Positions 1 through 35,913 of a stretch of 64,000 nt of DNA are shown one piece after another. Under the pieces are notes generated by a model that ran no database searches, was not told the origin of the DNA, and worked only from the letters and a program-made list of their open reading frames with translations. This DNA comes from a bacterium (GTDB lineage Bacteria; Krumholzibacteriota; Krumholzibacteriia; LZORAL124-64-63), in assembly GCA_020049465.1 (NCBI GenBank), contig JAIFKS010000024.1, positions 210 to 64,209 on the forward strand. The letters run 5' to 3'. Each line of letters begins with the position of its first letter. The stretch's first letter is position 1. A program made the translations under genes and the position numbers.

Positions 1-1115
1 CCGTACAGGGCTTCAGTTCGCTGCTCCGCGACGGCGACGATCTGCTGGCGCTGCAGGACAACGGCCTGGGCACCATGGCCAACAGCGCCGACAGCCCGCT
101 GCGCTGGTATCGCCTGCGGCCGGACTGGGCGGCCGGCTCCGTCAAGCTGGACGGTTTCGTCGAACTGACCGACCCCGACCGCCTGCTGCCGTTCCCGCTG
201 GCCGGCGCGGAGAATCTTCGCGAAGGCCGCCGCCTGTCGGGCGCCGACCTGGACCCCGAAGCCATGGTGGCGATGGACGACGGCACGTTCTGGATCGCCG
301 AAGAGTTCGGACCGTCGCTGGTGCATGTCGACGGCAACGGCGTGGTGCTGGAGAAGCCGGCGCTGGTGTTGCTGCCGCCGTCGCTGCGCGCGTTCGGGCG
401 CGGTTCGCCGTACCTGCGCACGCCTGACCACCCGGATCTGCGCGGACTGCGCGCCGACGCGTCGCGTCGCGATCTGGCCAATCTGCCGCGCAGCGGCGGC
501 ATCGAAGGTCTGGCCCGTTCGCCCGGAGGTGACCGCCTGTACGCCGCCGTCGAGAAGGGCATGCTCGACGACACGGACGGGCAGCGTCGCCTCATTCTCG
601 AATTCGATCCCGCGCGCCACGGCTTCACCGGCCGCTGCTGGTTCTACCGCGCCACTGCGGCAAACGTGTCGATCTCGTCGCTCGACAGCGACGGCAACGG
701 CGGCCTGCTGGTGCTCGAGCGGGACCCGGGCGAAGGCCGCGCTGCCGCCATCAAGCGCATCTACCGCGTGGTGCCCGGGCAGGTCGACGATACGGGGTAC
801 CTGGCGCGCACGCTGGTCTGCGACCTGCTGTCGCTCGACGACGACCGCGACCTGACGCGCCATGAACGCGGCTCGATCGGGCTGGGCCGGCATTTCAAGC
901 TGCCGTTCGTAACCCCGGAGTGCCTGCTGGTGGTGGACGCCTCGACGCTGATCGTGGCCAACGACAACAACTACCCGTTCAGTTCCGGCCGCCGGCCCGG
1001 CGAACCGGACGATACGGAGATCGTGCGTCTGCGGCTCAAAACGCCCCTGAACGCAGCGGGAGCGGCCGCTGTGGCGACCGCCCCCGTCGAATCCGCTGCG
1101 TCGAAACCTCAGTAG
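1..1115 (+). CDS. phytase-like esterase family protein (5' end outside window)
   Basis: Frame stays open to the window edge upstream of the listed ORF 75..1115. GC3-rich. Motifs GIEGLA, LLVLERD and ANDNNYPF resemble the esterase-like-activity-of-phytase propeller family. Confidence 0.55.
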   Translation, partial: VQGFSSLLRDGDDLLALQDNGLGTMANSADSPLRWYRLRPDWAAGSVKLDGFVELTDPDRLLPFPLAGAENLREGRRLSGADLDPEAMVAMDDGTFWIAEEFGPSLVHVDGNGVVLEKPALVLLPPSLRAFGRGSPYLRTPDHPDLRGLRADASRRDLANLPRSGGIEGLARSPGGDRLYAAVEKGMLDDTDGQRRLILEFDPARHGFTGRCWFYRATAANVSISSLDSDGNGGLLVLERDPGEGRAAAIKRIYRVVPGQVDDTGYLARTLVCDLLSLDDDRDLTRHERGSIGLGRHFKLPFVTPECLLVVDASTLIVANDNNYPFSSGRRPGEPDDTEIVRLRLKTPLNAAGAAAVATAPVESAASKPQ

Positions 1116-9823: not shown

Positions 9824-9825
<2 letters not shown>

Positions 9826-9959
9826 TTCCGGCCATGGGTGTCGGTGTGGCAGAGGTCCAGTGCAGGGGGTTGCCTGGACAGTCCTCGTCGCTGCGCTCCT
9901 GCGGATAGTCCAGGCAACCCCCTGCACTGGACCTCTGCCGCGCGGCCATGGCCGGAAAT
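9824..9959 (-). repeat. conserved-loop hairpin element, copy 1
   Basis: Outer 14-bp stem 9824-9837/9946-9959. Inner perfect 32-bp stem 9848-9879/9908-9939. The 28-nt loop 9880-9907 reads TATCCGCAGGAGCGCAGCGACGAGGACT on the minus strand. Confidence 0.8.
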
Positions 9960-10059
9960 CCGGCGCTGGCGGAGGCAATGGTCGTCTTTGGGACGGGAGT
10001 TGTCCATAGGGTTGCGAGGGCGCCCACCGACGGAGTCGAAGGCCACCGTGTCTCCGGGG

Positions 10060-10077
10060 GCTTGGGTCGGCGCAAGT
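10060..10077. repeat. 18-bp palindrome family, degenerate copy O (15/18)
   Basis: GCTTGGGTCGGCGCAAGT, just downstream of the hydrolase stop. Confidence 0.5.
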
Positions 10078-10090
10078 TTTGGTGGGGCGG

Positions 10091-11410
10091 TCAGTTTGAC
10101 GGGGACCTGCAGCCTCCCAGCACGAACCCTGCGATATCGTCGATGACCACGGGGGCCACCGGGCGCGGGGTGGCGTAGTCTTCCGGGGTGGCGCGGCCCT
10201 CACCGGCCCGCATCAGATGGTCCAGGTTTTCGTAGAGCTTGAGGCAGGCTTGCGGCCGCCCCTCCAGCGCCGCCTGCCAGCGCGCGAAATCCACCTTCGT
10301 CACCTGGTAGTCGCGCCCGCCCTGCAGCACCAGGATGGGGATGTCCAGCGCGGCGGCCTCGGTGGGGCCGTCGTGGGCCTCGAGGTCGGCGAAGTAGCCG
10401 CTCGGGACGCCCAGGGGGTCGCCGACCGCGGGCTCCGGCCCCCGCAACGCGGCCACGGCGGCCTTCAACTGGGCGAGGTGCGCCGCTTCTTCGGCCGTGA
10501 CCGTGTCGTCCAGTGCGACCAGGTACTCGGTCTGTTCGACCATGATCTCCGGCAGCGGCCTCGCGGCGCCCGCCATGATGATCACGCCGTCAGCCTTCGC
10601 CTCCGTCGCCAGGCGCGGCCCGACCATGCCACCCAGCGAGTGCCCCAGCACGAACACGCGCGCGGGGTCGATCTCCGCCCGGTTGCGCAGCAGCGCGACG
10701 GCCACCACCGCGTCGTCGATCGTCTCGTGCTGCACGGTCAGCGCCGCGCCGTGGGCCGTCAGCGATGGCAGGTTCGCGTAGCTGCGTTTGTCGTAGCGCA
10801 GCACGGCCACCCCGCGCGCGGCCAGCCCATGGGCGATGTCGCGGAACGGGCGGTTGCCCATGATGTTCTCGTCGCGGTCGCTCGGACCGCTGCCGTGCAC
10901 CAGCACCACGGCCGGGAAGGGTCCGTCGCCGTCGGGCAGCGACAGCGTGCCCGGCAGCGCGCTGTCCGCGGGCCCCACGGACACCTCGATCTCGCGCGGC
11001 CCCGCCGCGGCCGCCGGTTCGGGCGCGTGCGGCAGCAGCCCCAGTCCCGCCACGCGCGCGTCGGCATCGAGCACGACCTGGAAATCGATCGTCGTTAGTT
11101 CGCCCACCACCGGCACCCGGTACCGCCGGTAGACTCCGACATTGTCGTCATGCCACGCCGCGCCCACCGACTTGATCGCACCGGTCTGCGCCGTCACCGC
11201 GCCGAGCAGCTGCCCGATCGAGGCATCATTCATCGCCTCGCTCATCTGCGAAGTGCCCATCGCGCGCGCCGCCGCCCCGTCGCTCTTGACCAGAGCCTCC
11301 GAAAACGACCGCGCCACAGCCTCCGGCTCCGCCGCTCCGACTTGCGCCGGCGCAAGTCCCGCAAGCACCCCAATAATGAACGCCCCCGCGATCCCCAGTC
11401 CCATCCGCAT
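10091..11410 (-). CDS. secreted alpha/beta hydrolase
   Basis: Signal peptide MRMGLGIAGAFIIGVLAGLAPAQVGAA. Motifs VLVHGSGPSDRDE and nucleophile elbow GHSLGG. AAGGGGA RBS. Confidence 0.8.
   Translation of the reverse strand: MRMGLGIAGAFIIGVLAGLAPAQVGAAEPEAVARSFSEALVKSDGAAARAMGTSQMSEAMNDASIGQLLGAVTAQTGAIKSVGAAWHDDNVGVYRRYRVPVVGELTTIDFQVVLDADARVAGLGLLPHAPEPAAAAGPREIEVSVGPADSALPGTLSLPDGDGPFPAVVLVHGSGPSDRDENIMGNRPFRDIAHGLAARGVAVLRYDKRSYANLPSLTAHGAALTVQHETIDDAVVAVALLRNRAEIDPARVFVLGHSLGGMVGPRLATEAKADGVIIMAGAARPLPEIMVEQTEYLVALDDTVTAEEAAHLAQLKAAVAALRGPEPAVGDPLGVPSGYFADLEAHDGPTEAAALDIPILVLQGGRDYQVTKVDFARWQAALEGRPQACLKLYENLDHLMRAGEGRATPEDYATPRPVAPVVIDDIAGFVLGGCRSPSN
11340..11357. repeat. 18-bp palindrome, exact copy A, inside the hydrolase signal-peptide codons
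   Basis: ACTTGCGCCGGCGCAAGT. Confidence 0.95.
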
Positions 11411-11492
11411 GCCGTGTCCCCTTAGAGTGGAAGCCCCGCCTCCAACCCTACCACCCCGCGCCCCAAAAATCGCTGTTCTCCTGTATACGTCC

Positions 11493-11580
11493 GGTGGCCG
11501 GTGACAGGCAGGGGGGCTGGACTATCCGCAGGAGCGAAGCGACGAGGACTGTCCAGCTCCCCTGCCTGCCACCGGCCACC
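11493..11580 (+). repeat. conserved-loop hairpin element, copy 2
   Basis: 30-bp stem 11493-11522/11551-11580 with 2 mismatches. 28-nt loop 11523-11550 reads TATCCGCAGGAGCGAAGCGACGAGGACT. Confidence 0.8.
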
Positions 11581-11586
11581 AGCACC

Positions 11587-12972
11587 TCACCCTTTTTGCA
11601 GGGGAGCCACACGCTTGAAAGTGAACGCAACCTTCGCCTTCACCGTCTTGCCCTCCACCTCGAGCAGCGGATAAGCCAGGAAGTTGATGGGCCCTCCGGC
11701 CGGCAGCGGGTCGACCACCAGGTCGCGCCCGCGCGACATCTCGATCCGGTTGGCCGGGTGATGGCCGAAGTAGTAGGTCGCCAGGCTGGAGTACTTGTCG
11801 GCCTCGCTGATGTCGACCGGCCACCACTTGCCTTCGGCGTAGAACTCGGCCCAGCAGTGGTAACCATCGACGCCGCCGGCGTCGCGCTCGGACGGGATGC
11901 CGGCGCCGATGGCGAATCGCGCGGGGATGCCGGACGCGCGCGCCACCCCGATGAAGTAGGCGTGGAAATCGGTGCAGTTGCCGGTCTTCACGTCGCAGGC
12001 GTAGGTGGCGTCGCCCTGGCCCCAGCCCTCGCCGTTCTTGATGTAGGCCATGCGGTCGATCACATGGTCGTAGATCGCGCGTGCGCGCACGAGGTCACCC
12101 GTCTTGCCCGCGACCACCGCTTGCGCGATGGCCACGAACTCCGGGCTGGCCGGCACCAATCTGTCGGGCGCCAGATACCGTGCCGCGTCGGCCTCGGCCG
12201 CCTGGTAGGGCGACTTCTCGATCCGCGTGACGTTCATCCGCATCTCGACCACGCCGCCGCTGTCCTCGGGGCCAAGCTCGACGTACAGGATCCGGTTGCC
12301 CCCGTCGCGGTCGCGGATTTCGCGCTGCACGCCGGGCGTCGTGACGGACAACATTTCCACGGTCTGGAACGCATCGGTCTCGGGCAGCGGCAGCCACATG
12401 CGCGCCGGCGCCGCCAGCTGCGGCAGCACGGCCCGGTAGGTGAATTCGAACGCGTCGGTGCCGCGCGTCACGCCCAGGTGGGCCTCCGAAGCGCGGTCGA
12501 CCGGAATACGCTGCCACGTCCCGTCATCAGCCTGATCCCAGGCGTAGTAGGGCTGCCCGTTCAACTTGTGAACGGTCGTGGCCGTGACCGTCATGGCGCC
12601 CGGATCACCCGCCATGAAAAAGTCGACGTCATACAGGTCACCGCTGGTGTCGGCCAGATCAACACACGCGAAATGCTCGCGCGGCCCCAGATTCGCCAGG
12701 TATTCGGTATGCACCCGCACCAGCTTCAGCCGCAGCGCCTGCCCCTCGTGGTCCAGCGCAAACGTGCCCCCTCCGGCCTGAACCTGCTCATCAACGTACT
12801 TCTCGATCCCCTTCTGGATGTCGGCGGTCACGACCGCCGCCGCCGGAATCGCGTCCCCCGCATCCGCCTTCCCGCTGATGATCCCCGCCCCGATCGCCCC
12901 GACCGCACAAACCGCCACAACCAACCCCGACCAGCGCCCCGCGCCCCCAGTCGTACTCTTTTCTTTCTTCAT
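11587..12972 (-). CDS. transglutaminase-like domain protein
   Basis: Start MKKEKSTT at 12972 with a GGGAGAG RBS. Membrane anchor. Core GNCTDFHAYFIGVARASGIPARF...GYHCWAEFY. Confidence 0.8.
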   Translation of the reverse strand: MKKEKSTTGGAGRWSGLVVAVCAVGAIGAGIISGKADAGDAIPAAAVVTADIQKGIEKYVDEQVQAGGGTFALDHEGQALRLKLVRVHTEYLANLGPREHFACVDLADTSGDLYDVDFFMAGDPGAMTVTATTVHKLNGQPYYAWDQADDGTWQRIPVDRASEAHLGVTRGTDAFEFTYRAVLPQLAAPARMWLPLPETDAFQTVEMLSVTTPGVQREIRDRDGGNRILYVELGPEDSGGVVEMRMNVTRIEKSPYQAAEADAARYLAPDRLVPASPEFVAIAQAVVAGKTGDLVRARAIYDHVIDRMAYIKNGEGWGQGDATYACDVKTGNCTDFHAYFIGVARASGIPARFAIGAGIPSERDAGGVDGYHCWAEFYAEGKWWPVDISEADKYSSLATYYFGHHPANRIEMSRGRDLVVDPLPAGGPINFLAYPLLEVEGKTVKAKVAFTFKRVAPLQKG

Positions 12973-13075
12973 CTCTCCCAACCTCTTTCCGCAGCCCGCG
13001 CCCAAGTGGTGGCAATTCCATTTTCACGCTCCGCCAAGCTACGCAAGCCCCCTCCATCCTGCACCCCCTCCGCGC

Positions 13076-13093
13076 ACTTGCGCCGGCGCAAGT
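13076..13093. repeat. 18-bp palindrome, exact copy B, intergenic
   Basis: ACTTGCGCCGGCGCAAGT, 13 nt from hairpin element copy 3. Confidence 0.95.
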
Positions 13094-13105
13094 CGCGGCG
13101 TCAGC

Positions 13106-13170
13106 CAGGCGTGTCTCGCGAACTATCCGCAGGAGCGAAGCGACGAGGACTGTTCGCGAGGCACATACCT
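13106..13170 (+). repeat. conserved-loop hairpin element, copy 3
   Basis: 13-bp stem 13111-13123/13152-13164 with one G-T pair, plus an outer CAGG/CCTG. 28-nt loop 13124-13151 is identical to copy 2. Confidence 0.75.
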
Positions 13171-13211
13171 GTCTGATGCCAGCACCATGCACCCATCGAT
13201 GATCCAGCGTT

Positions 13212-13257
13212 GGGGAAAAAGGAAAAAGGCCCCCCGACTCAAGGGGAGGCCTTTTTC
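13212..13257 (-). terminator. intrinsic (bidirectional-looking) terminator after the AraC gene
   Basis: AAAAAGGAAAAAGGCCCCCC-GACTCAA-GGGGAGGCCTTTTT. A GC stem flanked by an A-run and a T-run. Confidence 0.65.
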
Positions 13258-21337: not shown

Positions 21338-22534
21338 TCAGTCTCCGGCCGTGATCGTCCCGACTTCATCCGTGGAGCCGGCGGCCGTGAAGCGGCCACC
21401 CTCCACGCGCCACGCGCTGAGACCCCCGGGCCGCCAGCCGGCGATGTCGTCGGTCCGCGCCGTGGCGACGAACACCTGGTGCTCACGCGATGACATCTCC
21501 TGCAGCCGCCGGGTCCGCTCCCGGTCCAGCTCGCTGAAGATGTCGTCGAAGAAGAGCACCGGCCGCATCCGGCGCTGGCCGAACAGCACGTCGCTGCGGG
21601 CCAGGATCATGGCGATGGCCGCGGTGCGCGTCTGTCCCTGCGAGCCGTACACGCGCAGATCGACCCCCTCCAACACCAGATTGAAGTCGTCGAACTGCGG
21701 CCCGGTCAGGGGCCTTCCGCGCCTGATTTCCGTGTCCATAATATAGTCGATTTCATCGAAAATAGCGCCCGCCAATTCCGCTTCCGGAGGCAATTCTCCA
21801 CCACCGGCCACCAGGCGCCGCACGACGCTCTCCAGGCGCGGCCGGTAGTCGCAGGAGAGCGCGCCCGGGGGTCCGGCCAGCGCCTCGTGGTTGGCCTGCA
21901 GGGGCGGCTCCAGCAGGCGCGCGTAGGCGGCGCGACCCCGGCAAACCGCCGCCGCGTGGACGGCCAGTTCGCGGTTCCAGGCGGTCAGTTCGGCGCGCCC
22001 GCGGCCATTGGCCGAGTACCCGCGGCGCAGGTCGTGCAGCAGGCCGGTCTTCTGTTTCAGGGCACGCTGGCAGGCCGACAGGTGGCCCAGGTAGGTCGGG
22101 TCGAGTTCGGCCATGCCCTGGTCGGCGAACTGGCGCCGCATCTGCGGAGCTCCGCGCACCAGCCCGATCGTGTCGGGGTTGAAGACGACCGTGACCAGCC
22201 GGCCGATCAGCTCGGCGCGCTGTTTCAGGGGCTCACCATCAACCCGCAGCCGCCGTCCGCCGCGCCGGTCCAGTCCGAATTCGCAGGCTACGACGGCGCC
22301 GGAATCCTCTTCGACCGACAGGTTGACGTGCAGGGCATCCTGGCCGAAGGCGATCATCTCCTCGGGCCGGGCGCCCATGTGTGAACGCCCCAGCGCGAAC
22401 CAACCGAGCGCCTCGAGCAGGTTGGTTTTGCCTTCGCCGTTGCGGCCGAGCAGCAGGTTCACCGACGGGGAAAATTCGAACGACACCTCGTCCAAGTTGC
22501 GGAAATTCTGGAGGGTGGCCGAAAGGATGCGCAC
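21338..22534 (-). CDS. recF: DNA replication/repair protein RecF
   Basis: GTG start at 22534 with an AGGAG upstream. Starts VRILSATLQNFRNL with Walker A GRNGEGKTNLLEA. C-terminal FDDIFSELD. Confidence 0.9.
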   Translation of the reverse strand: MRILSATLQNFRNLDEVSFEFSPSVNLLLGRNGEGKTNLLEALGWFALGRSHMGARPEEMIAFGQDALHVNLSVEEDSGAVVACEFGLDRRGGRRLRVDGEPLKQRAELIGRLVTVVFNPDTIGLVRGAPQMRRQFADQGMAELDPTYLGHLSACQRALKQKTGLLHDLRRGYSANGRGRAELTAWNRELAVHAAAVCRGRAAYARLLEPPLQANHEALAGPPGALSCDYRPRLESVVRRLVAGGGELPPEAELAGAIFDEIDYIMDTEIRRGRPLTGPQFDDFNLVLEGVDLRVYGSQGQTRTAAIAMILARSDVLFGQRRMRPVLFFDDIFSELDRERTRRLQEMSSREHQVFVATARTDDIAGWRPGGLSAWRVEGGRFTAAGSTDEVGTITAGD

Positions 22535-22638
22535 GGGTCGGGGCTCCTGGAGCGTAGGCGTCTGGGGCTGCGATCGCGGCGGCTCGCCCGCGGCCCCGAA
22601 AGGATAGGCCATGCCGGGGGCGGCGTCGAGTGCGGGGC

Positions 22639-22656
22639 GCTTGCGCCGGCGCCAGC
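22639..22656. repeat. 18-bp palindrome family, degenerate copy D (15/18)
   Basis: GCTTGCGCCGGCGCCAGC. Shares the GGGGCGCTTGCGCCGGCGC flank with copy C. Confidence 0.55.
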
Positions 22657-22691
22657 GGCCGAGATGTGTGTGACGTTGATTCTTCGAGATG

Positions 22692-22763
22692 GTTGACCTA
22701 TCAACGATTCCGGGCCCACCAACAGGCAATTCACGCCCCATTTTTAGTTGATAGGTCAACGAT
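22692..22763. promoter_or_regulatory. pair of 14-bp GTTGA-N4-TCAAC boxes (candidate operator) upstream of recF
   Basis: GTTGACCTATCAACGAT at 22692-22708 and GTTGATAGGTCAACGAT at 22747-22763. They are mutual reverse complements over 14 bp and lie in a locally AT-richer patch. Confidence 0.35.
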
Positions 22764-22873
22764 CTCCGGAATTCCACATGCGTGCAGAGAGAGCCCGCGC
22801 TCTTCACGGGGCGGCCTGGCGCCCGGCCGCCAACCCGGCTCGTCGCGGTGACCACATGCGCCGGCGTAAAGAC

Positions 22874-22912
22874 CAAAAAAGCCGGCCCCGCTGCCGTCAC
22901 AGCAGCGGGGCC
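22874..22912 (-). terminator. intrinsic terminator after dnaN
   Basis: Minus strand reads GGCCCCGCTGC-TGTGACG-GCAGCGGGGCC followed by GGCTTTTTTGG. Confidence 0.75.
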
Positions 22913-22939
22913 GTTCATTTCCAATCAACACAACCGTCG

Positions 22940-24079
22940 CTAGTCCCCTGCCAGCCGCAGCGGCATCAGCAGACAAACGACACCCATCTCCTCGCCCGTG
23001 TCCTGCACCGGCTTGATGAGCGCCGCGCTCTGCGAGTCCTTCAGCGACAGAACCACCGACTCGGCCTGCAGGTTCTTCAGGATGTCCTGGAGGTAGCTGT
23101 AGTTGAAGCCGATCTCCAGCGGGTCGCCCTGGTAGCTGACGGAGATCTCGTCCTCGGACTGGCTGCCCTCGGTGCCGCGCGCGGTCAGTTCCATGCGCCC
23201 GGCCTCGATGCCCAGCTTGATCTGGCTGGTGACGCGGTCCGCGGTGATGGCCACGCGGCGGATGGACTGCGCGAAGTCGGCCTTGTCGACGGTCACGAAC
23301 TTGTCATTGTCCTTCGGCAGCACGGCCTGGTAGTCGGGGAAAGGCCCTTCGAGCTGGCGCACCTGCAGCACGGTGCTGCCGGCGCGGAACGACAACTGGT
23401 TGGCGCCGACGAACACGTTGATGTCGGTGTTCGCCGCGTCCTCGTCCCTGGCTGCCGCCGCGATGCGCGGGATCTGCCGCAGACCGTTCGTGTCGACGAT
23501 CATGTTCTTCTCGCCGGTGAACTTCCAGTCCATCTGGCGGATGCTGCGGGCCAGGCGGTGCGCGTCGGTGGCGACCATCGTCAGCGACGTCGGGCGCACC
23601 TCCCACAGGATGCCCATCAGCGCGGGGCGCGTCTCATCGCGCGACACCGCGTAGGCCGTTTCGTTGATCATGGTGATCAGCGTGTCGGCGGTCATGGTCA
23701 GCCCGGACTTCTCCTCCGGCTTCTTCAGCACGGGGTAGTCCGCCACGTTCATCGTGTTCTCGGTCAGCCGCGACTTGCCGCTGGTCAGCGTGATCTGCTC
23801 GCCCTTCTGCGCGATGGTCACCACGCCGGGCCGCAGGCTGCGTACGAACGGAACGAACTTCACCGCGGGAATGGCCACGCGGCCCGGATCCTTCACGGTC
23901 ACCTTCGTGGTCGAGGTCGTGATCGAGATATCCAGGTTCGTCGCCGAGAGCGTCAGGCTCTCCTTCGTCGCTTCCAGCAGGACGCAGCTGAGGATCGGCA
24001 GAGTGGTCTTGTTCGGGACCACGTTGGCGATGACGTCGAGGGCCTTCTGCAGGTCCTCCTGCTGGATTTCGAACTTCAC
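22940..24079 (-). CDS. dnaN: DNA polymerase III beta sliding clamp
   Basis: GTG start at 24079 with GGAGG 8 nt upstream. Starts VKFEIQQEDLQKALDVIANVVPNKTTLPILSCVLLEA. Confidence 0.95.
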   Translation of the reverse strand: MKFEIQQEDLQKALDVIANVVPNKTTLPILSCVLLEATKESLTLSATNLDISITTSTTKVTVKDPGRVAIPAVKFVPFVRSLRPGVVTIAQKGEQITLTSGKSRLTENTMNVADYPVLKKPEEKSGLTMTADTLITMINETAYAVSRDETRPALMGILWEVRPTSLTMVATDAHRLARSIRQMDWKFTGEKNMIVDTNGLRQIPRIAAAARDEDAANTDINVFVGANQLSFRAGSTVLQVRQLEGPFPDYQAVLPKDNDKFVTVDKADFAQSIRRVAITADRVTSQIKLGIEAGRMELTARGTEGSQSEDEISVSYQGDPLEIGFNYSYLQDILKNLQAESVVLSLKDSQSAALIKPVQDTGEEMGVVCLLMPLRLAGD

Positions 24080-24189
24080 GGTCCCGGCCTCCGGGGTGAG
24101 TGGCAGACGATCTTCGCGGAGGGCCATGATAGGCGATGGCAGGCAGGCAGGCAAGCGTGTGATCATCCTCTCCGCCAGGCCTCTCGAAC

Positions 24190-24433
24190 CCTCTTACATC
24201 ATGGTATTTATATAAAAGGTAGTCGTAGATATAGGGGTCGGGGATAACCGGGATAAGTGGGGATGGGTGACGGCGAAGGCATCGGTTTCACCCTTTCAGA
24301 GGTGTCGATGACGGGGACAACTTCCGGACGGCGAACGCGTAACCTGCCACCTGTCCCCCACGTCCGCGCGGACCCGTATTTGCCCCCGAACCGTACCCCG
24401 GTTGTCCCGGACTCATCCCCGAACTTATCCCAA
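24190..24433. other. candidate oriC: AT-rich unwinding element plus DnaA-box cluster
   Basis: AT-rich CATCATGGTATTTATATAAAAGGTAGTCGTAGATATAGG at about 24198-24236. Eight TyrTCCCC-type boxes at 24239-47, 24248-56, 24258-66 and 24312-20 (reverse) and 24351-59, 24402-10, 24413-21 and 24425-33 (forward). Confidence 0.55.
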
Positions 24434-24616
24434 GGATATACAGTCAACGAAACCGCATCCGGGAGGTCGCGCGGGCGGCGCCGCGACGTTCGCGAGGGCT
24501 GCCGCAGGGTTCGCGCGCAGGGCGTGCGGCATGGCCCACGGCTGTTCATACATGCGACGACGCCGGCTCCACGGGGAACCGGCGTCACGACACATGGACC
24601 GTGAGGGTGCCACGGT

Positions 24617-26020
24617 TCAATTCCTGCGTCCACGCACCTTGTCCTGGATATCCAGCACGAAGCCGCGGTAACGCGGGTCGTCGCCCATGTCCTTGCCGAT
24701 CTTCTGGCACGCATGCGCGACGGTCGAATGGTCGCGACCGCCGAAGGCGCGGCCGATTTGATTGAGGGAGGCGCCGGTCATTTCGCGAGACAGGTACATC
24801 GCCATCTGACGGGCCCGGGCCAGGTCCTGGGTGCGTCTTTTGGACTTCAGTTGATCGACGGTCACGTCGGTGGCGTCGGCCACCACTTTCATGACATCGG
24901 CGATCTTCACAGGCCCGGATGAATTCCCCTGGAAAAAGGAGGAGAGGACCTCGGAGGCCATTTCCAGGGAGATTTCACGTCCCGTCAGGCTGGCGAATGC
25001 AAGCAGGCGGATCAGCGCCCCCTCAAGTCGGCGGATATTGTCGGTAATGTTCTCAGCGATGTAGGCAATCACGTCATCGGTGATGTAAATGTTGTTGGAC
25101 TCGACCTTCCGCTTCAGGATGGCCATGCGCGTCTCGAGGTTGGGTGGCTGGATATCGGTGATGAGCCCCCACTCGAACCGCGAACGCAGCCGCTCCTCCA
25201 GCGTCGTGATCTCCTTCGGAGACCGGTCGGACGTCAGGATGATCTGCTTCTTCAGGTCGTACAGCGCGTTGAACGTGTGGAAGAACTCTTCCTGGGTGGA
25301 CTCCTTGCCGGCCAGGAAGGCCACGTCGTCCACCAGCAGCACGTCGACGCTGCGGTACTTCATCTTGAAGTCGGGCGTCCGGTTGTCGCGGATCGACCCG
25401 ATCAGGTCGTTCATAAAGTTCTCGGCCGTGATATAGGCGATGCGGCGCTGCGGGTGCGCGTCGGCGATGGCGTTGCCCACCGCGTGCATCAGGTGCGTCT
25501 TGCCCAGCCCCACCCCGCCGTGGATGAACAGCGGGTTGAAGTGGCTGCCCGGGTTCCGGGCCACGGCCGTGGCCGCGGCGAACGCCATGTCGGTGCCCGA
25601 CCCGACCACGAAATTCGCGAACGTGTAATCGGGATTCAGATTGATGGTCTGGGCGGTGCGCGGCGCCGGCGCCTGGTTCGGGGCCGGCCGGACGCCACCG
25701 CCGGCGTCGACCCGTCCGGCGGCCGGGCGCTCCTCCTGCTCCGGGGCCAGGGGCGTCAGTTCGAGCTGGGCCCCGTCCTGGATCTTCAGCGTGAAGGCCA
25801 CGTCGCGCCCGAAGCAGGCCGAGCCCGCCTCGTTCAGGACGCCCAGGTGGTGCTCGCTGAACCAGTCCATGAAGAAATGGTTGGGGCAGGAAACCTTCAG
25901 GGATCCGTTGGGTGAGTTTTCCGGCTGCAGGGGGGCAAACCACGTGTTGAAGGTCTGCAAAGCGACCCGTTGCCGGACGATATCGAGGATTTCGGACCAG
26001 TAGGCATCCAGATCGGCCAT
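24617..26020 (-). CDS. dnaA: chromosomal replication initiator DnaA
   Basis: Start MADLDAYWSEIL at 26020. Motifs FIHGGVGLGKTHLMHA, LLVDDVAFL and the C-terminal DNA-binding RDHSTVAHACQKI. Confidence 0.97.
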   Translation of the reverse strand: MADLDAYWSEILDIVRQRVALQTFNTWFAPLQPENSPNGSLKVSCPNHFFMDWFSEHHLGVLNEAGSACFGRDVAFTLKIQDGAQLELTPLAPEQEERPAAGRVDAGGGVRPAPNQAPAPRTAQTINLNPDYTFANFVVGSGTDMAFAAATAVARNPGSHFNPLFIHGGVGLGKTHLMHAVGNAIADAHPQRRIAYITAENFMNDLIGSIRDNRTPDFKMKYRSVDVLLVDDVAFLAGKESTQEEFFHTFNALYDLKKQIILTSDRSPKEITTLEERLRSRFEWGLITDIQPPNLETRMAILKRKVESNNIYITDDVIAYIAENITDNIRRLEGALIRLLAFASLTGREISLEMASEVLSSFFQGNSSGPVKIADVMKVVADATDVTVDQLKSKRRTQDLARARQMAMYLSREMTGASLNQIGRAFGGRDHSTVAHACQKIGKDMGDDPRYRGFVLDIQDKVRGRRN

Positions 26021-26065
26021 GGAATCCCCACGCCCCGAAGGGCAGAACCGCGATATCGCGCCCGG

Positions 26066-26093
26066 GTTATACACAGGGCGACAATCTCGCCAA
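26066..26093 (-). promoter_or_regulatory. possible dnaA promoter (TTGGCG-16-TATAAC) overlapping a DnaA-box-like TTATACACA
   Basis: Read on the minus strand. The -10 overlaps the box at 26067-26075. Confidence 0.3.
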
Positions 26094-26144
26094 AACACTG
26101 TCTTTAAAGGGGATAGACGGTATCCAGCCGGAAAGAACAAAAAG

Positions 26145-26174
26145 TTATCCACAAAAAACACGCCTTGTGGATAA
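26145..26174. promoter_or_regulatory. two perfect DnaA boxes TTATCCACA in inverted orientation
   Basis: TTATCCACA at 26145-26153 and TGTGGATAA at 26166-26174. A further 8/9 box, TGGGGATAA, at 26367-26375. Confidence 0.8.
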
Positions 26175-26388
26175 CTTGTTGCGCCGCCTTTTTGGGTTGT
26201 TCTCTATCCGCGGCGAAGCTAGCACGCGATTTCGCGGGCCGACAAGATTTTTCTTCGGATTTTTACGTGACCGCGCAGTTCATTTGAACAGTGCGGGTTG
26301 CGGGCCTGGAAAATTTCCAACCGCCGGGCGGGCCGGCTTTCCGGGACGGTCTTGGGCTTCGGGGCCTGGGGATAACCCGGTGTTTTCC

Positions 26389-26417
26389 TTGACACTGCAC
26401 CGGCAGATCGCTAACAT
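26389..26417 (+). promoter_or_regulatory. sigma-70 type promoter for rpmH (TTGACA-17-TAACAT)
   Basis: Exact -35 hexamer, 17-nt spacer, 4/6 -10. About 40 nt upstream of rpmH. Confidence 0.5.
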
Positions 26418-26457
26418 TTGCCCTTCGTGAAATCTGACTGCAGCCAAGGAGAGATCC

Positions 26458-26592
26458 GTGAAGCGGACGTTCCAACCGAGCCTCATCAAGCGGTCCCGCC
26501 GGCATGGCTTCCGCAAGCGGATGTCGACGCGCGGCGGACGGCTTGTGCTGAGCCGGCGCCGGGCCAAGGGCCGCAAGCGCATTTCCGCCTAG
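26458..26592 (+). CDS. rpmH: 50S ribosomal protein L34
   Basis: Not in the ORF track because it is only 44 aa. GTG start after AAGGAGAG. Translation [44 protein letters not shown]. Confidence 0.92.
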
Positions 26593-26665
26593 CATCGCTC
26601 TGGCCCACGATTCTGGCCCGGAAACCCCGGGCCATGACAGCGGCCGGGACCGCGTCGCAGGCGGG

Positions 26666-27142
26666 GTGCACATGAGCGGAACCATCGCCTGGCGATCGCT
26701 GGCCCGTAAGAGTGATTTCCAGAAGGTCTACAACGAAGGCGCCAAGTCGGTCGGCCGCCTCGTTGTCGTGTACCTGTTGCCCGCCGCTGATGCGGCTCGG
26801 GCGGTCGTCGCCAGCCGGAAGGTCGGCGGCGCCGTTCAGAGAAACCGGGCCAAGCGATTGTTGCGCGAAGCGTTTCGTAACGGTACGCTCGGCAACGCCG
26901 CCGCCGTGAGCGGCATCTTGCAGAGGCTGTCCGTCGCCGTGGAGCCCGAAGAAGGGTCCGGGGCGCAGACGCAGAACTTGTGGGTCGTGCTCGTCGCCCG
27001 CCGCAACATTCTCGCGGCCGGCTCCGCCGAAGTGCAGGCCGAGCTCGACGCGCTGCTGCGCGCGCTGCTGGAATACCAATGTCCAGAGGGCCACGGACCA
27101 TGGGACGACATCCCGTCATGGCGGGGCCCGAACCGGGCCTGA
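26666..27142 (+). CDS. rnpA: ribonuclease P protein component
   Basis: Follows rpmH. Motifs SLARKSDFQKVYNEG and RNRAKRLLREAFR. Confidence 0.85.
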   Translation: MHMSGTIAWRSLARKSDFQKVYNEGAKSVGRLVVVYLLPAADAARAVVASRKVGGAVQRNRAKRLLREAFRNGTLGNAAAVSGILQRLSVAVEPEEGSGAQTQNLWVVLVARRNILAAGSAEVQAELDALLRALLEYQCPEGHGPWDDIPSWRGPNRA

Positions 27143-27239
27143 ACGCCGTGCCGCCGTCGCCGGGCCGCCTTGCCATTCAACCGGTGCGCCACGCCCGCCC
27201 CTGTCCTTCCTGCCAGGGCGAAGCACCACACAGGACTGT

Positions 27240-27506
27240 ATGTGGCGTTTGCCATACCTGCTGATTCTCGCCTACCGGCGGGTCGTGTCCCCCTGGATGC
27301 CCGCGGTTTGCCGTTTCCACCCATCCTGTTCGGCGTATGGCGCCGAAGCCTTCCGCACGCACGGCCTGTGGCGCGGCGCCTGGCTCACGTTCCGCCGTCT
27401 GACACGCTGCCATCCCTGGCACCCGGGCGGCCTTGATCCCGTGCCGCCACCACCCGGCGCGCACTCCTGCTGTTCCAACCCCCACGGAGACATTGCCCAT
27501 GGATAG
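27240..27506 (+). CDS. yidD: membrane protein insertion efficiency factor YidD
   Basis: Motif YRRVVSPWMPAVCRFHPSCSAYGAEAFRTHG...RLTRCHPWHPGGLDPVP. Confidence 0.9.
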   Translation: MWRLPYLLILAYRRVVSPWMPAVCRFHPSCSAYGAEAFRTHGLWRGAWLTFRRLTRCHPWHPGGLDPVPPPPGAHSCCSNPHGDIAHG

Positions 27507-29307
27507 GCGCACCGTGATCGGCTTCGTGCTGATCTTCCTGATCATCATCGGCTACCCCCTGGTCATGAACAAGATCTACCCGCCCAAGCCGGTCACGCGT
27601 CCGCAAGCGACGACGGAAAGCGCGCCGGGTGCCGAAGCCACGACCACAACCGGGGCCGCGGCCGAGCCGTCGGCGCCGGCGGGGGACTGGACGGAGCAGG
27701 GCCTCCCGGCCGCGGACGTGGACGGCAGCCAGTCCGCGATGCCGCTGACCATGGCCCAGGCGCTGGAGCCGGCGCCGGCGGCCGGCGGTCCGGCGTTCGT
27801 GACCGTGACCACGCCGCTGTACCGTGCGCGCATCGACATGCAGGGCGGCGCCATCAGTGGCTGGGAACTCCTGAACCACCAGAGCTGGCGCGGCGGGCCG
27901 GTGCAGATGGTGCCGGACAAGGGCGTGGTCGGCGGGGCGGACAGGATCATCTTCCGCGCCGCGGAGCTGGATCTGGCGATGTTTCCGTACGCGTCCGACG
28001 AGGGCGACTTCGAGCTGGCGGCCGGCGCCGGCAAGCGCACTCTGACCCTGCGCGGCACCACGCGCGGCGGCCTCGAGGTGCGCAAGATCTTCACGTTCGA
28101 CCCGGCGACGTACGGCGTCTCGGTCGACCTGGAGCTGGGTGGCGACGGCGTGGCCGTCGGCAACCTGCTGACGCAGACCGGCAGCCCGGATGCGGTGCGG
28201 TTCGGCTGGAACCGCGGCATCGCGCTGGTTGAGCGTCACGAGAAGGCGGAGCAGGCGTCGTTGCGCGCGTTCGCGGGCATCGGCGAGGACCTGCACCTTC
28301 GCAAACGTGACGGACTGAAGAAGGACGTCACCAAGGTTGAAGGCCAGTGGCGCGGCTCGATCCGCTTCGCCGGCATTCAGGACCGCTATTTCGCGATCAT
28401 CGGTATCGTTCCCCAGGTGCAGGGGGAACCGGTCGAGGGCACCGTGCGGCTCGGCGGGGACAAGGATCGGTTGGCCCAGACCTGGGCGATCGACCTTCCC
28501 GCGCGCCGCGCCGACAGCGGGGGCATCGCTGCCGCGCGTCTCGATCTCTACATCGGCCCTCAGCAGGCCGATCTGCTCCGCGTCTACGGACAAGGTCTGG
28601 AAAACACCATGGACCTGGGCTGGAAGTGGGTGCGCCCGCTTTCGAAGCTTGTGCTCTGGGGAATGGATCTGCTGTACCGGTACATCCCGAACTACGGCGT
28701 GATCATCATCATCTTCTCCATCGTGACGAAGCTGATGTTCTATCCCCTGACGCAGACCTCGACCAAGTCCATGCGCAAAATGCAGGAACTGCAGCCCAAG
28801 CTGAAGGCCCTGCAGGAGAAGTACAAGAACGACAAGGAGAAGCTGAACGCGGCGACTCTGAAGCTGTATCAGGAGGAGAAAGTCAATCCCCTGTCCGGCT
28901 GTTGGCCGCTGCTCGTCCAGTCTCCGGTGTTCATCGCGCTCTACCAGGCGCTGAGCCACACGGTTTCCCTGCGCGGGCAGCCGTTTTTCGCCTGGATCCG
29001 GGATCTCTCGCAGCCGGATGCGATCGCGACGCTGCCGTTCGCGATTCCCCTGCTGGGATCGGACCTCAACCTGCTGCCCTTCCTGATGGGCATCGCGATG
29101 TACTTCCAGACCAAATACACCCCGACCACCGGCGGCGGCCAGATGGCCATCATGAACAACATGATGCCGGTGATCATGATCTTCATCTTCTACAGCATGC
29201 CGTCGGGCCTGGTGCTCTACTGGTCGGTGCAGAACGTGTTGCAGGCGTACCAGTCCTGGAGAATCCACGTGACGGCAGGTAAAAGCGGAGGCGCAGTCAC
29301 AGCATGA
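27499..29307 (+). CDS. yidC: membrane protein insertase YidC
   Basis: Start MDRRTVIGFVLIFLII at 27499. C-terminal core YGVIIIIFSIVTKLMFYPLT...MQELQPKLKALQEKYKND...NPLSGCWPLLVQSPVFIALY. Confidence 0.95.
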   Translation: MDRRTVIGFVLIFLIIIGYPLVMNKIYPPKPVTRPQATTESAPGAEATTTTGAAAEPSAPAGDWTEQGLPAADVDGSQSAMPLTMAQALEPAPAAGGPAFVTVTTPLYRARIDMQGGAISGWELLNHQSWRGGPVQMVPDKGVVGGADRIIFRAAELDLAMFPYASDEGDFELAAGAGKRTLTLRGTTRGGLEVRKIFTFDPATYGVSVDLELGGDGVAVGNLLTQTGSPDAVRFGWNRGIALVERHEKAEQASLRAFAGIGEDLHLRKRDGLKKDVTKVEGQWRGSIRFAGIQDRYFAIIGIVPQVQGEPVEGTVRLGGDKDRLAQTWAIDLPARRADSGGIAAARLDLYIGPQQADLLRVYGQGLENTMDLGWKWVRPLSKLVLWGMDLLYRYIPNYGVIIIIFSIVTKLMFYPLTQTSTKSMRKMQELQPKLKALQEKYKNDKEKLNAATLKLYQEEKVNPLSGCWPLLVQSPVFIALYQALSHTVSLRGQPFFAWIRDLSQPDAIATLPFAIPLLGSDLNLLPFLMGIAMYFQTKYTPTTGGGQMAIMNNMMPVIMIFIFYSMPSGLVLYWSVQNVLQAYQSWRIHVTAGKSGGAVTA

Positions 29308-35674: not shown

Positions 35675-35690
35675 TGTTCCACGTGGAACA
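35675..35690. promoter_or_regulatory. parS centromere site
   Basis: Perfect palindrome TGTTCCACGTGGAACA, which fits the parS consensus TGTTNCACGTGAAACA. Confidence 0.9.
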
Positions 35691-35785: not shown

Positions 35786-35801
35786 TGTTCCACGTGGAAC
35801 A
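35786..35801. promoter_or_regulatory. parS centromere site
   Basis: TGTTCCACGTGGAACA. Confidence 0.9.
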
Positions 35802-35897: not shown

Positions 35898-35913
35898 TGT
35901 TCCACGTGGAACA
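35898..35913. promoter_or_regulatory. parS centromere site
   Basis: TGTTCCACGTGGAACA. Confidence 0.9.

Follow-up and report, generated by a model that had tools for sequence, protein, structure and literature searches.

The window, a stretch of 64,000 nucleotides from a bacterium of the Krumholzibacteriia, contains a gene run encoding an AraC protein, a transglutaminase-like protein, a hydrolase and an ABC-F protein. This order, given in the initial annotation, is correct; the hydrolase is an alpha/beta-hydrolase and all genes lie on the minus strand. The spacers of this run contain hairpins with the 28-nt core TATCCGCAGGAGCG(A/C)AGCGACGAGGACT. The three near-identical cores described before, each capping a long hairpin, were found again, with none expected by chance. 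No further core matches were present in the window with up to three mismatches allowed, and 100 shuffles of the window yielded 0 matches. A covariance model search of the window, with 17 family members as training set, returned the same three sites and no others. The features are as follows.

9824-9959, minus strand (core sense): hairpin copy 1, between the hydrolase stop (10091) and the ABC-F start codon (9825-9823)
9880-9907, minus strand: core of copy 1, TATCCGCAGGAGCGCAGCGACGAGGACT, centre base N = C, exact match
9848-9879, strandless: inner arm of copy 1, 32 nt, perfect complement of 9908-9939, inverted repeat I1
9908-9939, strandless: partner of the inner arm, pairs with 9848-9879
9824-9837, strandless: outer arm of copy 1, 14 nt, inverted repeat I25, 100% complementary
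9946-9959, strandless: partner of the outer arm, inverted copy of the ABC-F translation-start region
11493-11580, plus strand: hairpin copy 2, arms 11493-11522 and 11551-11580, inverted repeat I2
11523-11550, plus strand: core of copy 2, TATCCGCAGGAGCGAAGCGACGAGGACT
13097-13180, plus strand: hairpin copy 3, inner arms 13111-13123 and 13152-13164, inverted repeat I18
13124-13151, plus strand: core of copy 3, TATCCGCAGGAGCGAAGCGACGAGGACT

The perfect 32-bp stem and the outer 14-bp stem reported for copy 1 can both be read from the sequence. The DNA fold of this copy has an energy of -63.2 kcal/mol (z -11.8; covariance-model match 91.1 bits). Its outer arm at 9824-9837 reaches into the ABC-F start codon by two bases and also covers the ribosome-binding region; the ABC-F reading frame (MLTLTEASFDFGRERILRG...) begins at 9825 on the minus strand. 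Copy 2 (-40.0 kcal/mol, z -7.3, 86.7 bits) begins 7 nt past the stop of the transglutaminase-like gene (11587) and lies upstream of the hydrolase start (11410). The 30-bp stem assigned to it stands as far as the 30-nt arms are concerned, but it is not perfect, with 28 Watson-Crick pairs, one G.T and one A.C. Copy 3 (-22.8 kcal/mol, z -3.2, 72.3 bits) follows the AraC terminator and precedes the transglutaminase-like gene. Its stem comprises 13 pairs including one G.T, and outer pairing continues from 13097 to 13180.

An invariant tip between variable arms

These hairpins belong to a broadly distributed family with an invariant tip and variable arms. A search for the 24-mer TCCGCAGGAGCGNAGCGACGAGGA gave 76 genome stretches, which represent about 44 assemblies and no fewer than 11 phyla; inverted arms flank the 24-mer in nearly all cases. 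Core carriers amount to about 44 of 185,579 species. These loci were collected by exact core match, which decayed copies would escape. In an alignment of 91 copies all positions were near-invariant except position 13 (A 77, C 9, G 4, T 1). It corresponds to N in GCGNAGC, a DNA mini-hairpin that has this base free at its apex and is stable with any N (PMC13037366). Variation of N alone is as expected of the d(GCGNAGC) DNA mini-hairpin. A variant copy (L012:1729) has its centre swapped for GCGTAAGC, which belongs to another mini-hairpin class, GCGNNAGC. Standard nearest-neighbour folding of the isolated 24-mer revealed no special stability (z about -0.4); the fold proposed for the tip would follow from published mini-hairpin and G.A chemistry rather than from folding energies. 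Covariation of the seven proposed Watson-Crick pairs of the tip was never seen. Consequently, the sequence is read, and not the shape alone.

The stems were said to differ between the copies in a compensated manner. This is the case for 21 of 25 pairs, which change on both sides among 17 distinct subfamily copies. In these copies 90.4% of cells are paired, and the arm covariation score is 0.81, whereas shuffles reach 0.19 and slid controls about 0.15. The arm mismatches (13 G.T versus 41 other) do not favour G.T. At the locus L074 the arms form 59 perfect base pairs, and one of them repeats, in inverted form, the final 11 codons and the stop of the neighbouring gene. Thus, arms arise or grow through inverted duplication of DNA, and the selection for pairing that had been suggested does not follow from their compensation.

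At two junctions, AraC-hydrolase and upstream of ABC-F, hairpins are shared with relatives at 64-88% protein identity; the cores are intact there, and the arms have been rewritten by compensating changes. At the copy 1 junction a hairpin is also present in the relatives L003, L032, L053 and L024, and in a Krumholzibacteriia genome one immediately precedes the ABC-F gene. Between orthologous sites the tip is inverted (window and L003 versus L032 and L053; L001 versus L074). Flanking sequence serves as the template of arms, and the tip changes its orientation.

A role as RNA is very improbable for these hairpins. They would act as structured small RNA, as mRNA-stabilising or processing hairpin, or as translational regulator, with two Shine-Dalgarno-like motifs (GGAG/GAGGA) in the loop and the ABC-F ribosome-binding site sequestered at the hairpin base. 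All window copies do lie between genes of a same-strand run, in spacers that look transcribed, AGGAG and GAGGA are present in the loop, and in two distant lineages the outer arms (copy 1 and L024) pair with the ABC-F ribosome-binding site and start. However, a T-tract is missing from all three hairpins, and the AraC gene is followed by a canonical terminator of its own, directly ahead of copy 3; both findings disfavour the structured sRNA or mRNA-stability element suggested initially. RNA selection does not produce perfect Watson-Crick arms of 32-59 bp that show no G.U preference, and the tip occurs in both orientations relative to the same gene at orthologous sites with equal conservation. 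The GNA mini-hairpin is extraordinarily stable as DNA but is not known to be so as RNA, and the variable N suits the DNA form. Moreover, the same tip functions in plasmid origin regions. An Rfam search of the hairpins yielded nothing beyond generic hairpin noise, in agreement with the earlier statement that no known class can be assigned.

Mobile elements and duplex sites as alternatives

A selfish non-autonomous element of MITE or REP type is a possible, though doubtful, explanation. A trans-acting enzyme, such as an HUH/RAYT, IS200/IS605-type or other recombinase, would then bind or cleave the tip, and the likeness of the tip to plasmid initiation sites would stem from plasmid pick-up or from a common stable DNA fold. 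Bursts of near-identical whole elements occur in a Clostridiales genome (RGIG10087), a Bacteroidaceae genome, Omnitrophota and an Eggerthellaceae genome, the last with about 15 MITE-like copies sharing one common arm sequence. Arms conserved among further copies, which had been named as the mark of a MITE, are therefore found in some genomes but not in this lineage. The patchy spread across phyla points to horizontal transfer, and the copies cluster locally (three consecutive spacers in the window, two in L053, two within one spacer in L095 and in L096). At three loci an IS-like sequence abuts the hairpin exactly at either core edge, so at least one mobile element recognises the hairpin. The transglutaminase-like gene, which is missing from relatives, is flanked by two same-orientation copies. 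In contrast, an all-against-all comparison of 1,993 flank ORFs from all loci revealed no recurring transposase-like family. No target-site duplications or constant ends were seen in the window lineage, copies at orthologous sites keep intact cores while the proteins have diverged to 64-86% identity, unlike decaying MITEs, and the arms of L074 are demonstrably copied from local flanks. Insertion of a small element into pre-existing palindromes, another of the initial suggestions, was not supported; loop-less palindromes with the same arms were not seen.

Like REP/BIME sequences and MITEs, the present family consists of dispersed intergenic palindromes that occur in both orientations and in clusters, with uniform-arm bursts in some genomes. 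REPs, however, are conserved within species and not across phyla and have a 5' GTAG and a linked RAYT gene, and MITEs have constant terminal repeats and target duplications, whereas here the centre is conserved, is common across phyla and stands between locally templated arms. Integron attC sites are likewise folded single-strand hairpins that bracket genes, but they conserve structure and the stem base (R boxes) and leave the centre free. The present family does the reverse, and an integrase is absent. The conserved centre thus separates it in detail from both attC and typical REP sequences, as the initial annotation had noted.

It is rather unlikely that the tip serves as a double-stranded or cruciform site for protein binding or recombination with orientation-independent function, such as the edge of a cassette or the target of a protein of nucleoid or partition type. 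Orientation flips are indeed tolerated, and the absence of covariation at pairable tip positions, which implies sequence-specific reading, is compatible with it. Two copies enclose a gene whose presence differs between species, and the window copies lie 13-16 kb from oriC. Nevertheless, the tip is an asymmetric site of 24-28 bp that lacks an internal dyad, unlike known recombinase or partition sites, and no associated recombinase was found among the flank ORFs. The variation of the centre base is explained by single-strand mini-hairpin geometry and not by duplex contacts. We know of no universal duplex-binding protein with the specificity of the tip that would fit at least 11 phyla.

Relation to plasmid and phage initiation sites

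The core is identical at 25 of 26 positions to a hairpin tip in Arsenophonus, in Yersinia pYC and in E. coli plasmids (E = 0.01 in 7.3 Gb). In 341 enterobacterial plasmids, including IncX4/X5, Col3M and pHW126/pIGRK-like plasmids, the module lies 0.3-0.6 kb from the rep gene, and in a Xanthomonas plasmid the core is about 400 nt from repA. In E. coli the module was found at 108 plasmid places and 0 chromosomal ones. The pHW126/pIGRK-like plasmids among them show the order described for this group, namely ssi, four 22-bp iterons and rep. Deletion of this palindrome, termed ssi-like, leads to increased copy number and multimerisation (PMC6854812; bioRxiv 10.1101/2022.12.05.519187). The ssi label of the plasmid modules derives from homology and this deletion phenotype and not from a PriA assay.

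The ssi-like palindromes of pHW126/pIGRK/pIGMS31, IncX and ColE2/Col3M plasmids (e.g., Yersinia pYC) carry the tip TACCGCAGGAGC(G/A)(A/T)AGCGACGAGGAA, which equals the window core at 24-25 of 26 positions. Their short arms (CTTTGGCTG, CTTTTGCTG, GTCAGGCTG) vary with compensation, as do the arms here. A covariance model built from chromosomal copies only found the plasmid modules at full length (e.g., L078, 28.7 bits, E = 3e-5). Some plasmid versions have no true GNA mini-hairpin (GCATAGC, GCAAAGC). The plasmid sites are single-copy, lie near rep, have arms of about 9 bp and are flanked by CCGCTCGCCGCAG and AGCGAGGAAGCGGAA, whereas the chromosomal hairpins are multi-copy elements that lie between genes in either orientation, have arms of 13-59 bp and lack these flanks.

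Both flanks are identical in the pBR322/ColE1 site, which lies on the displaced strand about 110-170 nt downstream of ori and which we take to be the 'Y effector site' annotated in GenBank J01749. Three blocks of the core (CCGCAG, then GAGCGCAGCGA or GAGCG(N)AGCGA, then CGAGGA) are collinear with the displaced strand of this site (21 of 5000 shuffles scored as well). The pBR322/ColE1 site is a PriA-dependent ssiA (PMC3167613). In the F-G spacer of phiX174 the elements CCGC..AGG..AGCGAAGCG..CG..AGG are common to site and core, 40 of 5000 shuffles being as good. Similarity to these two experimentally proven PriA sites is moderate (p about 0.004-0.008) and needs two indels, since the match is broken by insertions of 10 and 9 nt. 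The tip is homologous to the plasmid ssi modules and collinear with the ColE1 site.

Sites of this phiX174-type n'-pas/ssiA class are single-stranded DNA hairpin signals and share the GCGNAGC mini-hairpin with the core. They lack the long perfect arms of the chromosomal hairpins and are strand-specific near the origin, whereas the chromosomal copies follow no strand rule. PriA dependence is proven for the ColE1 and phiX174 sites and putative for the chromosomal hairpins. A more distant resemblance exists to the ssoA-type origins of rolling-circle plasmids, which are also long imperfect palindromes with little conserved beyond short motifs and which, like the hairpins in our proposal, act on single-stranded DNA. 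One of these motifs, CS-6 (TAGCGT), is located in the loop at the end of the palindrome (PMC4598088). AGCGA is present twice in the core, with TAGCGA in IncX versions, so that the likeness extends over 5-6 nt only. An RSB motif is absent from the window copies, and ssoA, unlike the present family, is read by RNA polymerase and confined to plasmids.

Proposed function of the hairpins

Our tentative reading, which we regard as possible rather than established, is that the element is a dispersed REP-like palindrome whose tip is a signal of the single-strand initiation or primosome-assembly type. Among the three initial suggestions a single-stranded DNA hairpin read by an HUH/RAYT enzyme fits best with regard to the DNA hairpin (variation of N only, tip flips, G.T not favoured). 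The partner, in turn, is likely to be the replication priming machinery and not an HUH or RAYT enzyme, as suggested by the homology of the tip to plasmid ssi and primosome-assembly sites and by the absence of a recurring transposase-like ORF.

The functional part would be the tip of 24-28 nt acting on single-stranded DNA. When one strand is exposed in a lagging-strand template, D-loop, R-loop or during repair, the arms would pair to form a long hairpin. Above it the purine-rich tip TCC-G-C-A-G-GA-GCGNAGC-GA-C-G-A-GGA may fold so that tandem G.A pairs and a few G-C pairs support the stacked d(GCGNAGC) mini-hairpin and only A6 and the apex base N stay unpaired. This compact tip would be the same kind of signal as the plasmid and phage ssi and phiX174-type primosome assembly sites, and it may be recognised by priming or restart machinery, PriA or the primosome. 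The prime candidate is PriA, which is conserved in all phyla (PMC5778457) and is the sole restart protein found in all of them. The arms would hold no sequence information; intramolecular template switching or inverted duplication of the tip's flanks, including gene ends and ribosome-binding sites, may produce and lengthen them and maintain their complementarity, and arm-arm recombination would flip the tip.

A strictly strand-specific priming role would predict a strand bias. Because oriC lies at about 26 kb, the minus strand is the lagging-strand template at the three window copies, and the core sense is on it in copy 1 only. Among 78 copies the GC skew of the core-sense strand was positive for 38 and negative for 40. 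The missing bias counts against the priming signal favoured here.

The patchy distribution and the MITE-like bursts fit a selfish element as well as a host function, and the element may be of benefit to its host. The hairpins are probably single-stranded DNA replication signals scattered in chromosomes rather than RNA genes.

Core-bearing hairpins in the window

The initial annotation had reported three long hairpins with a shared 28-nt loop in consecutive intergenic spacers. This finding is real, and it is more remarkable than first described. The core TATCCGCAGGAGCG(A/C)AGCGACGAGGACT was found exactly three times in the window, always at the tip of a long hairpin. With up to 3 mismatches allowed no further match was found in the window, and shuffled sequence gave none. 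Folding of the DNA revealed z values of -11.8, -7.3 and -3.2 relative to shuffled sequence for copies 1, 2 and 3, respectively. A covariance model built from 17 family members matched these three sites alone in the 64 kb. The hairpins and their surroundings are as follows:

9824-9959: hairpin copy 1, core at 9880-9907 (minus strand)
11493-11580: hairpin copy 2, core at 11523-11550 (plus strand)
11587-13005: transglutaminase-like gene (minus strand)
13097-13180: hairpin copy 3, core at 13124-13151 (plus strand)
13222-13257: canonical intrinsic terminator of the AraC-type gene (minus strand)
21338-31235: chromosomal origin region with recF, dnaN and dnaA (minus strand) and yidC and jag (plus strand)
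26138-26181: inverted pair of TTATCCACA-type DnaA boxes upstream of dnaA

The stems described earlier were recovered for copy 1, whose inner 32 bp and outer 14 bp are both perfect, and for copy 3, where outer pairing is present in addition to the 13 pairs. Copy 2 indeed has 30-nt arms, but these contain one G.T and one A.C. The gene run was also as annotated and encodes, all on the minus strand, an AraC-type regulator, a transglutaminase-like protein, an alpha/beta-hydrolase and an ABC-F ATPase. An intrinsic terminator was rejected for all three hairpins, as the one terminator flagged by the scan was that of the AraC-type gene and none of the hairpins is followed by a T-tract. The canonical terminator of the AraC-type gene lies immediately before copy 3 and is conserved in the related loci L053 and L025.

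Since the dnaA-dnaN-recF origin region lies within the window, the window is chromosomal. The sign of the GC skew switches at about 22-26 kb. The three hairpins are located 13-16 kb to the left of the origin, where the minus strand is the lagging-strand template.

Other repeats were observed in the window. A parS-like palindrome, TGTTCCACGTGGAACA, is present in 3 perfect copies (35675-35690, 35786-35801 and 35898-35913; 0.01 expected) at a spacing of about 111 nt, adjoining a ParB-like reading frame near 37 kb. A 16-bp palindrome, CTTGCGCCGGCGCAAG, was detected at 15 sites when up to 2 mismatches were allowed (0.2 expected), for example at 10061, 11341, 13077, 32455, 33263, 41291, 42342, 48319 and 59360, and is also found in related genomes (L053, L025, L039 and L095). 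One copy of it lies about 15-140 nt from each window hairpin. It may represent a second family of repeats, or else an operator. An inverted repeat at 22686-22766, close to where recF ends, has the 20-nt arms GAGATGGTTGACCTATCAAC and GTTGATAGGTCAACGATCTC, which are 95% complementary and separated by 41 nt.

Evolution of the hairpin arms

Four loci from three freshwater genome bins (L003, L025, L032 and L053) are syntenic with window positions 5-18 kb, with 64-88% protein identity. Their hairpins occupy the corresponding junctions, after the AraC terminator and directly before the ABC-F gene. The cores are identical, and the arms differ at many positions, every change being matched on the opposite arm. 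In the Krumholzibacteriia locus L024, whose ABC-F protein is 64% identical, a hairpin is again located immediately upstream of ABC-F. The elements of the window lineage are old, and their tip is constrained while their arms are not. The transglutaminase-like gene, which in the window is flanked by copies 3 and 2 in the same orientation, is absent in the relatives (L053 2192-2408; L025/L032), where a single hairpin is located between the AraC-type and hydrolase genes. This difference looks like a cassette-type insertion or deletion.

The compensation between the arms was confirmed with 17 distinct copies of the sub-family in which CTA and CTG flank the core. In these, 90.4% of the arm cells are paired, and both partners have changed in 21 of 25 pairs. 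Covariation scored 0.81, whereas shuffles reached 0.19 and slid controls about 0.15. This pattern had been interpreted as a sign that the pairing itself is selected. Selection is not required, since intramolecular template switching explains both the compensated arms and the copying of gene ends into them. Such copying was seen in locus L074 (989-1137), which has perfect 59-bp arms. Its left arm takes in the end of the adjacent gene at 43..1023 (11 codons plus the stop codon); thus, the right arm must be an inverted copy of coding sequence. At the orthologous site in L001 the arms comprise 34 bp only and the tip has the opposite orientation.

In the window (9824-9837) and in L024 (4660-4820) the outer arm beside ABC-F contains the ribosome-binding site and start codon of this gene, and the far arm is the inverted copy. 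With these translation-start signals placed in or against the outer arm in two distant lineages, the hairpin could act as a translational regulator of ABC-F. In L032 and L053 the core is antisense to ABC-F, whereas the window and L003 have it in the sense orientation. Comparison of L003 with L053 revealed that the inverted segment takes in about 22 nt of unpaired flank per side, with an outer imperfect repeat at its bounds. Among the non-Watson-Crick arm cells of the 17 copies G.T occurred 13 times versus 41 other mismatches, i.e., there is no preference for wobble pairs. Searches against Rfam at gathering scores yielded no match in the window or at the elements in 18 loci. In E-value mode the region and one Bacillaceae copy retrieved just generic microRNA-precursor hairpins far below the cut-offs. 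RNA-level roles are unlikely.

The initial annotation had also considered insertion of the core into pre-existing palindromes. This proposal found no support, as no loop-less palindromes with the same arms were found and the long hairpins in syntenic loci all carry the core.

Distribution, conservation and fold of the tip

A scan with TCCGCAGGAGCGNAGCGACGAGGA, using one genome per species, detected 76 stretches in about 44 assemblies from at least 11 phyla. Carriers of the core include Bacillaceae isolates (Neobacillus, Mesobacillus, Cytobacillus, Rossellomorea and others), Clostridia, Eggerthellaceae, Saccharibacteria, Omnitrophota, Gemmatimonadota, Krumholzibacteriota, Spirochaetota, Acidobacteriota, Verrucomicrobiota, Bacteroidota and Myxococcota. 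In nearly all of these stretches the core is situated between inverted arms whose sequence is specific for the genome or sub-family. A sequencing or assembly artefact caused by a hairpin adapter was rejected because the arms are imperfect and lineage-specific and the copies lie between different genes. Copies in complete isolate genomes and from independent studies also rule out this explanation.

Over 91 copies, position 13 of the core was A in 77, C in 9, G in 4 and T in 1, and all other positions were essentially invariant; this conservation is overstated, since the loci were selected by exact core match, and diverged tips exist in the wider Bacillaceae family. In one Eggerthellaceae copy the centre is replaced by GCGTAAGC, which corresponds to a sister class, GCGNNAGC.

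Several lineage-specific forms were observed. Copies in the Gemmatimonadota (Longimicrobiales) loci L013, L030 and L047 form short tandem arrays, one of them with the expanded centre AGCGC AGCGC AGCGA AGCGA, which suggests slippage of an AGCGN pentamer. In the Bacillaceae loci L002, L037, L041, L050, L056 and L068 and the plasmid hits H26-H40 the core caps a complex palindrome of 130 nt with the purine-rich internal loops GGAGCGGAA and GGAAAGCGAAG. This palindrome is multi-copy on chromosomes and on plasmids of Priestia, Peribacillus and Bacillus, and some copies of this type carry a diverged tip, CCCGCAGCCGCACAGCGCCGAGGA, that resembles the pBR322 site.

No match was found in 50,697 GenBank phages, and in IMG/VR only 4 contigs matched, none of them obviously from an ssDNA phage. 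The metagenome scan with a 30-mer of the window subfamily likewise retrieved only 4 contigs. On one IMG/VR tailed-phage contig with terminase and portal genes (L084, 130-220) two core-like sites, GAGGAGCGCAGCGACGAGGG and CCGCAGGAGCGTAGCGACGAGGA, lie about 50 nt apart near the left end, upstream of the terminase gene. A full-text literature search for the core string found no paper, and a search joining primosome assembly with chromosomal intergenic palindromic repeats found nothing.

In the predicted fold of each window copy in context, the core forms the pairs T1-A24, C2-G23, C3-G22, C5-G20, G7-C19, G10-C16 and C11-G15. The nearest-neighbour model leaves G4/A21, G8/A18, A9/G17 and G12/A14 open. 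These positions could potentially form sheared G.A pairs, which would leave only A6 and N13 unpaired. N13 is the apex base of the motif GCGNAGC. The DNA mini-hairpin of this sequence is stable with any base N, with melting temperatures of 76, 73, 71 and 70 degrees C for A, G, C and T, respectively, and it recurs at single-strand priming sites, namely G4-type origins, RSF1010 ssiA and N4 promoters (PMC13037366). The isolated 24-mer exhibited no special stability in standard nearest-neighbour models, which leave out mini-hairpin and G.A motifs. Since the Watson-Crick positions of the tip are invariant, the tip would appear to be read by something in a sequence-specific manner.

Relation to priming sites and possible function

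A BLAST search of the extended core against 72,556 plasmids yielded matches of 24-25/26 identical positions in plasmids of Arsenophonus, in Yersinia pestis pYC and in E. coli plasmids. Each match is the tip of a short hairpin carrying CCGCAGGAGC..AGCGACGAGGA. The hairpin is part of a module resembling a plasmid single-strand initiation (ssi) palindrome, with the layout CCGCTCGCCGCAG - CTTTGGCTG - AGGCG TACCGCAGGAGC(G/A)(A/T)AGCGACGAGGAA CGAA - CAGCCAAAG - CGAGGAAGCGGAA, which is present in 341 enterobacterial plasmids. Its arms vary with compensation (CTTTGGCTG, CTTTTGCTG, GTCAGGCTG). In IncX4/X5 plasmids the module precedes the initiator gene by about 0.5 kb, and in pYC its distance from rep is about 0.4 kb. 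In a 2.4-kb plasmid it is followed by 4.4 copies of a 22-bp iteron and the rep reading frame, which is the published layout of pHW126/pIGRK/pIGMS31. On a Xanthomonas plasmid the core lies about 400 nt from repA. Among 5,426 complete E. coli genomes the module was found at 108 plasmid places and at none on chromosomes. The covariance model R1, built from chromosomal copies only, matched the plasmid modules over its full length with E values of 3e-5 to 1e-3. The tip is common to chromosomes of at least 11 phyla and to plasmid origin modules, the arms are locally templated and the tip flips. The plasmid modules are single copies beside rep or the origin with the flanks CCGCTCGCCGCAG and GAGGAAGCGGAA, whereas the window has three chromosomal copies between housekeeping-type genes which lack both flank motifs.

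The module has the same two flanks as the pBR322/pMB1 sequence CCGCTCGCCGCAG-CCGAACGACCGAGCGCAGCGAGTCAGTGAGC-GAGGAAGCGGAAG, which is found with 100% identity in many ColE1-type plasmids. Judged by the position of RNAI, this string is found on the displaced strand, about 110-170 nt downstream of the origin. In GenBank J01749 positions 2351-2414 of pBR322 carry the annotation of a factor Y effector site, which agrees with the coordinates of this string. The core blocks CCGCAG, GAGCGCAGCGA and CGAGGA are collinear in the pBR322 site with gaps of 10 and 9 nt, and this score was reached by only 21 of 5000 dinucleotide shuffles. The F-G spacer of phiX174, the original n' site, shares CCGC..AGG..AGCGAAGCG..CG..AGG (40 of 5000 shuffles score as well). 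Model R1 gave no match at the pBR322/ColE1 or phiX174 sites. At the sequence level the tie to these experimentally defined sites appears strong only via the IncX/pHW126-type module, which has both ColE1 ssiA flanks. ColE1-type plasmids possess a PriA-dependent primosome assembly site (n'-pas/ssiA) at that position downstream of the origin (PMC3167613; PMC5935869). PriA is the sole restart protein conserved across all bacterial phyla (PMC5778457), which would be compatible with the conservation of such a signal among phyla.

The best-supported mechanism is a signal of the ssDNA replication-priming or primosome-assembly type that is borne by a REP-like dispersed palindrome. We propose it tentatively, as a reading just short of probable. 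Like n'-pas/ssiA, the window copies fold as a stable single-strand hairpin (z from -3.2 to -11.8 as DNA), and 90.4% of arm cells are paired over the 17 sub-family copies. The active strand of n'-pas/ssiA is the lagging-strand template and its function is orientation-dependent, whereas the core sense lies on this strand in only one of the three window copies (copy 1). Over 78 copies no replication-strand bias was found, the GC skew on the core-sense strand being positive in 38 and negative in 40. Among the Eggerthellaceae copies the bias is opposite, 12 of 15 having negative skew. Since they differ in strand specificity and location, the elements were not filed as members of the classical primosome assembly sites or the plasmid ssi sites. 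The single-strand origin ssoA has CS-6 (TAGCGT/A) in its terminal loop; the core contains AGCGA twice, and IncX versions contain TAGCGA. The RSB motif present in the ssoA stem is missing from the window arms. A match to TGCCGAGAA in one Saccharibacteria arm (L035) may be due to chance.

Classes of mobile repeats were compared as well. Integron attC sites have conserved R''/R' boxes at the stem base, a variable centre and a linked integrase. The core-bearing hairpins are indeed the opposite, with a conserved centre, a variable stem base and no integrase nearby. REP/BIME elements are species-specific conserved palindromes with a 5' GTAG and a RAYT gene in the genome; the window copies lack GTAG, and their arms are not conserved between copies. 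MITEs have constant terminal inverted repeats, a target-site duplication and near-identical copies. The window copies and their relatives do not fit a MITE, as they share the core only and show no target duplication. Uniform arms are found elsewhere, for example in the Eggerthellaceae genome. In Eggerthellaceae and Saccharibacteria bins the hairpin is fused near the core to an IS-like sequence (...GTCCGCTTGCATCTACTCCGCTGATTCTGCAGAAC...), directly before the core in L007 (6118), about 5 nt after it in L052 (about 1040) and within the arm in L063 (3300). These junctions suggest a mobile element that targets the hairpins; contig ends truncate its coding part.

The main rival of the priming signal, and one compatible with it, is a selfish mobile hairpin with a putative trans-acting enzyme. 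A selfish repeat would account equally well for the patchy distribution, for the bursts of copies with uniform arms and for the local clustering. However, no partner enzyme was found in the flanks of the loci: no RAYT-like reading frame was linked to any locus, and all-against-all clustering of flanking reading frames revealed housekeeping synteny only, with no linked transposase. We regard this alternative as less likely than the priming signal.

The priming signal can also be formulated more broadly, in a version that we consider doubtful. The 24-nt tip would then be a universal self-folding ssDNA signal, a GNA mini-hairpin on tandem G.A pairs, which would serve practically every bacterium for loading the PriA restart primosome or a primase. 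The chromosomal copies would be programmed re-priming or restart sites, and the arms would be born and grow by template switching, which would copy neighbouring DNA, including gene ends and ribosome-binding sites, into them. Such a signal would explain why one and the same tip is encountered from Bacillaceae to Krumholzibacteriota as well as in plasmid origins. If this holds, the element would be both a replication signal and a palindrome-making engine that occasionally produces regulatory hairpins, for example upstream of ABC-F.

Primosome assembly and ssi sites are known from few phages and plasmids and are regarded as structure-specific curiosities with little common sequence. A 24-nt tip shared by at least 11 phyla and plasmid origins would supply a compact consensus for a signal of this type and, if confirmed, would connect the lagging-strand origins of plasmids with a class of repeats on chromosomes. 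In annotation, a stem with perfectly compensated changes should not be taken as evidence of a functional RNA. Bacterial genomes normally destroy long perfect palindromes; how these originate and persist there is documented by arms copied from flanking genes and by tips that flip.
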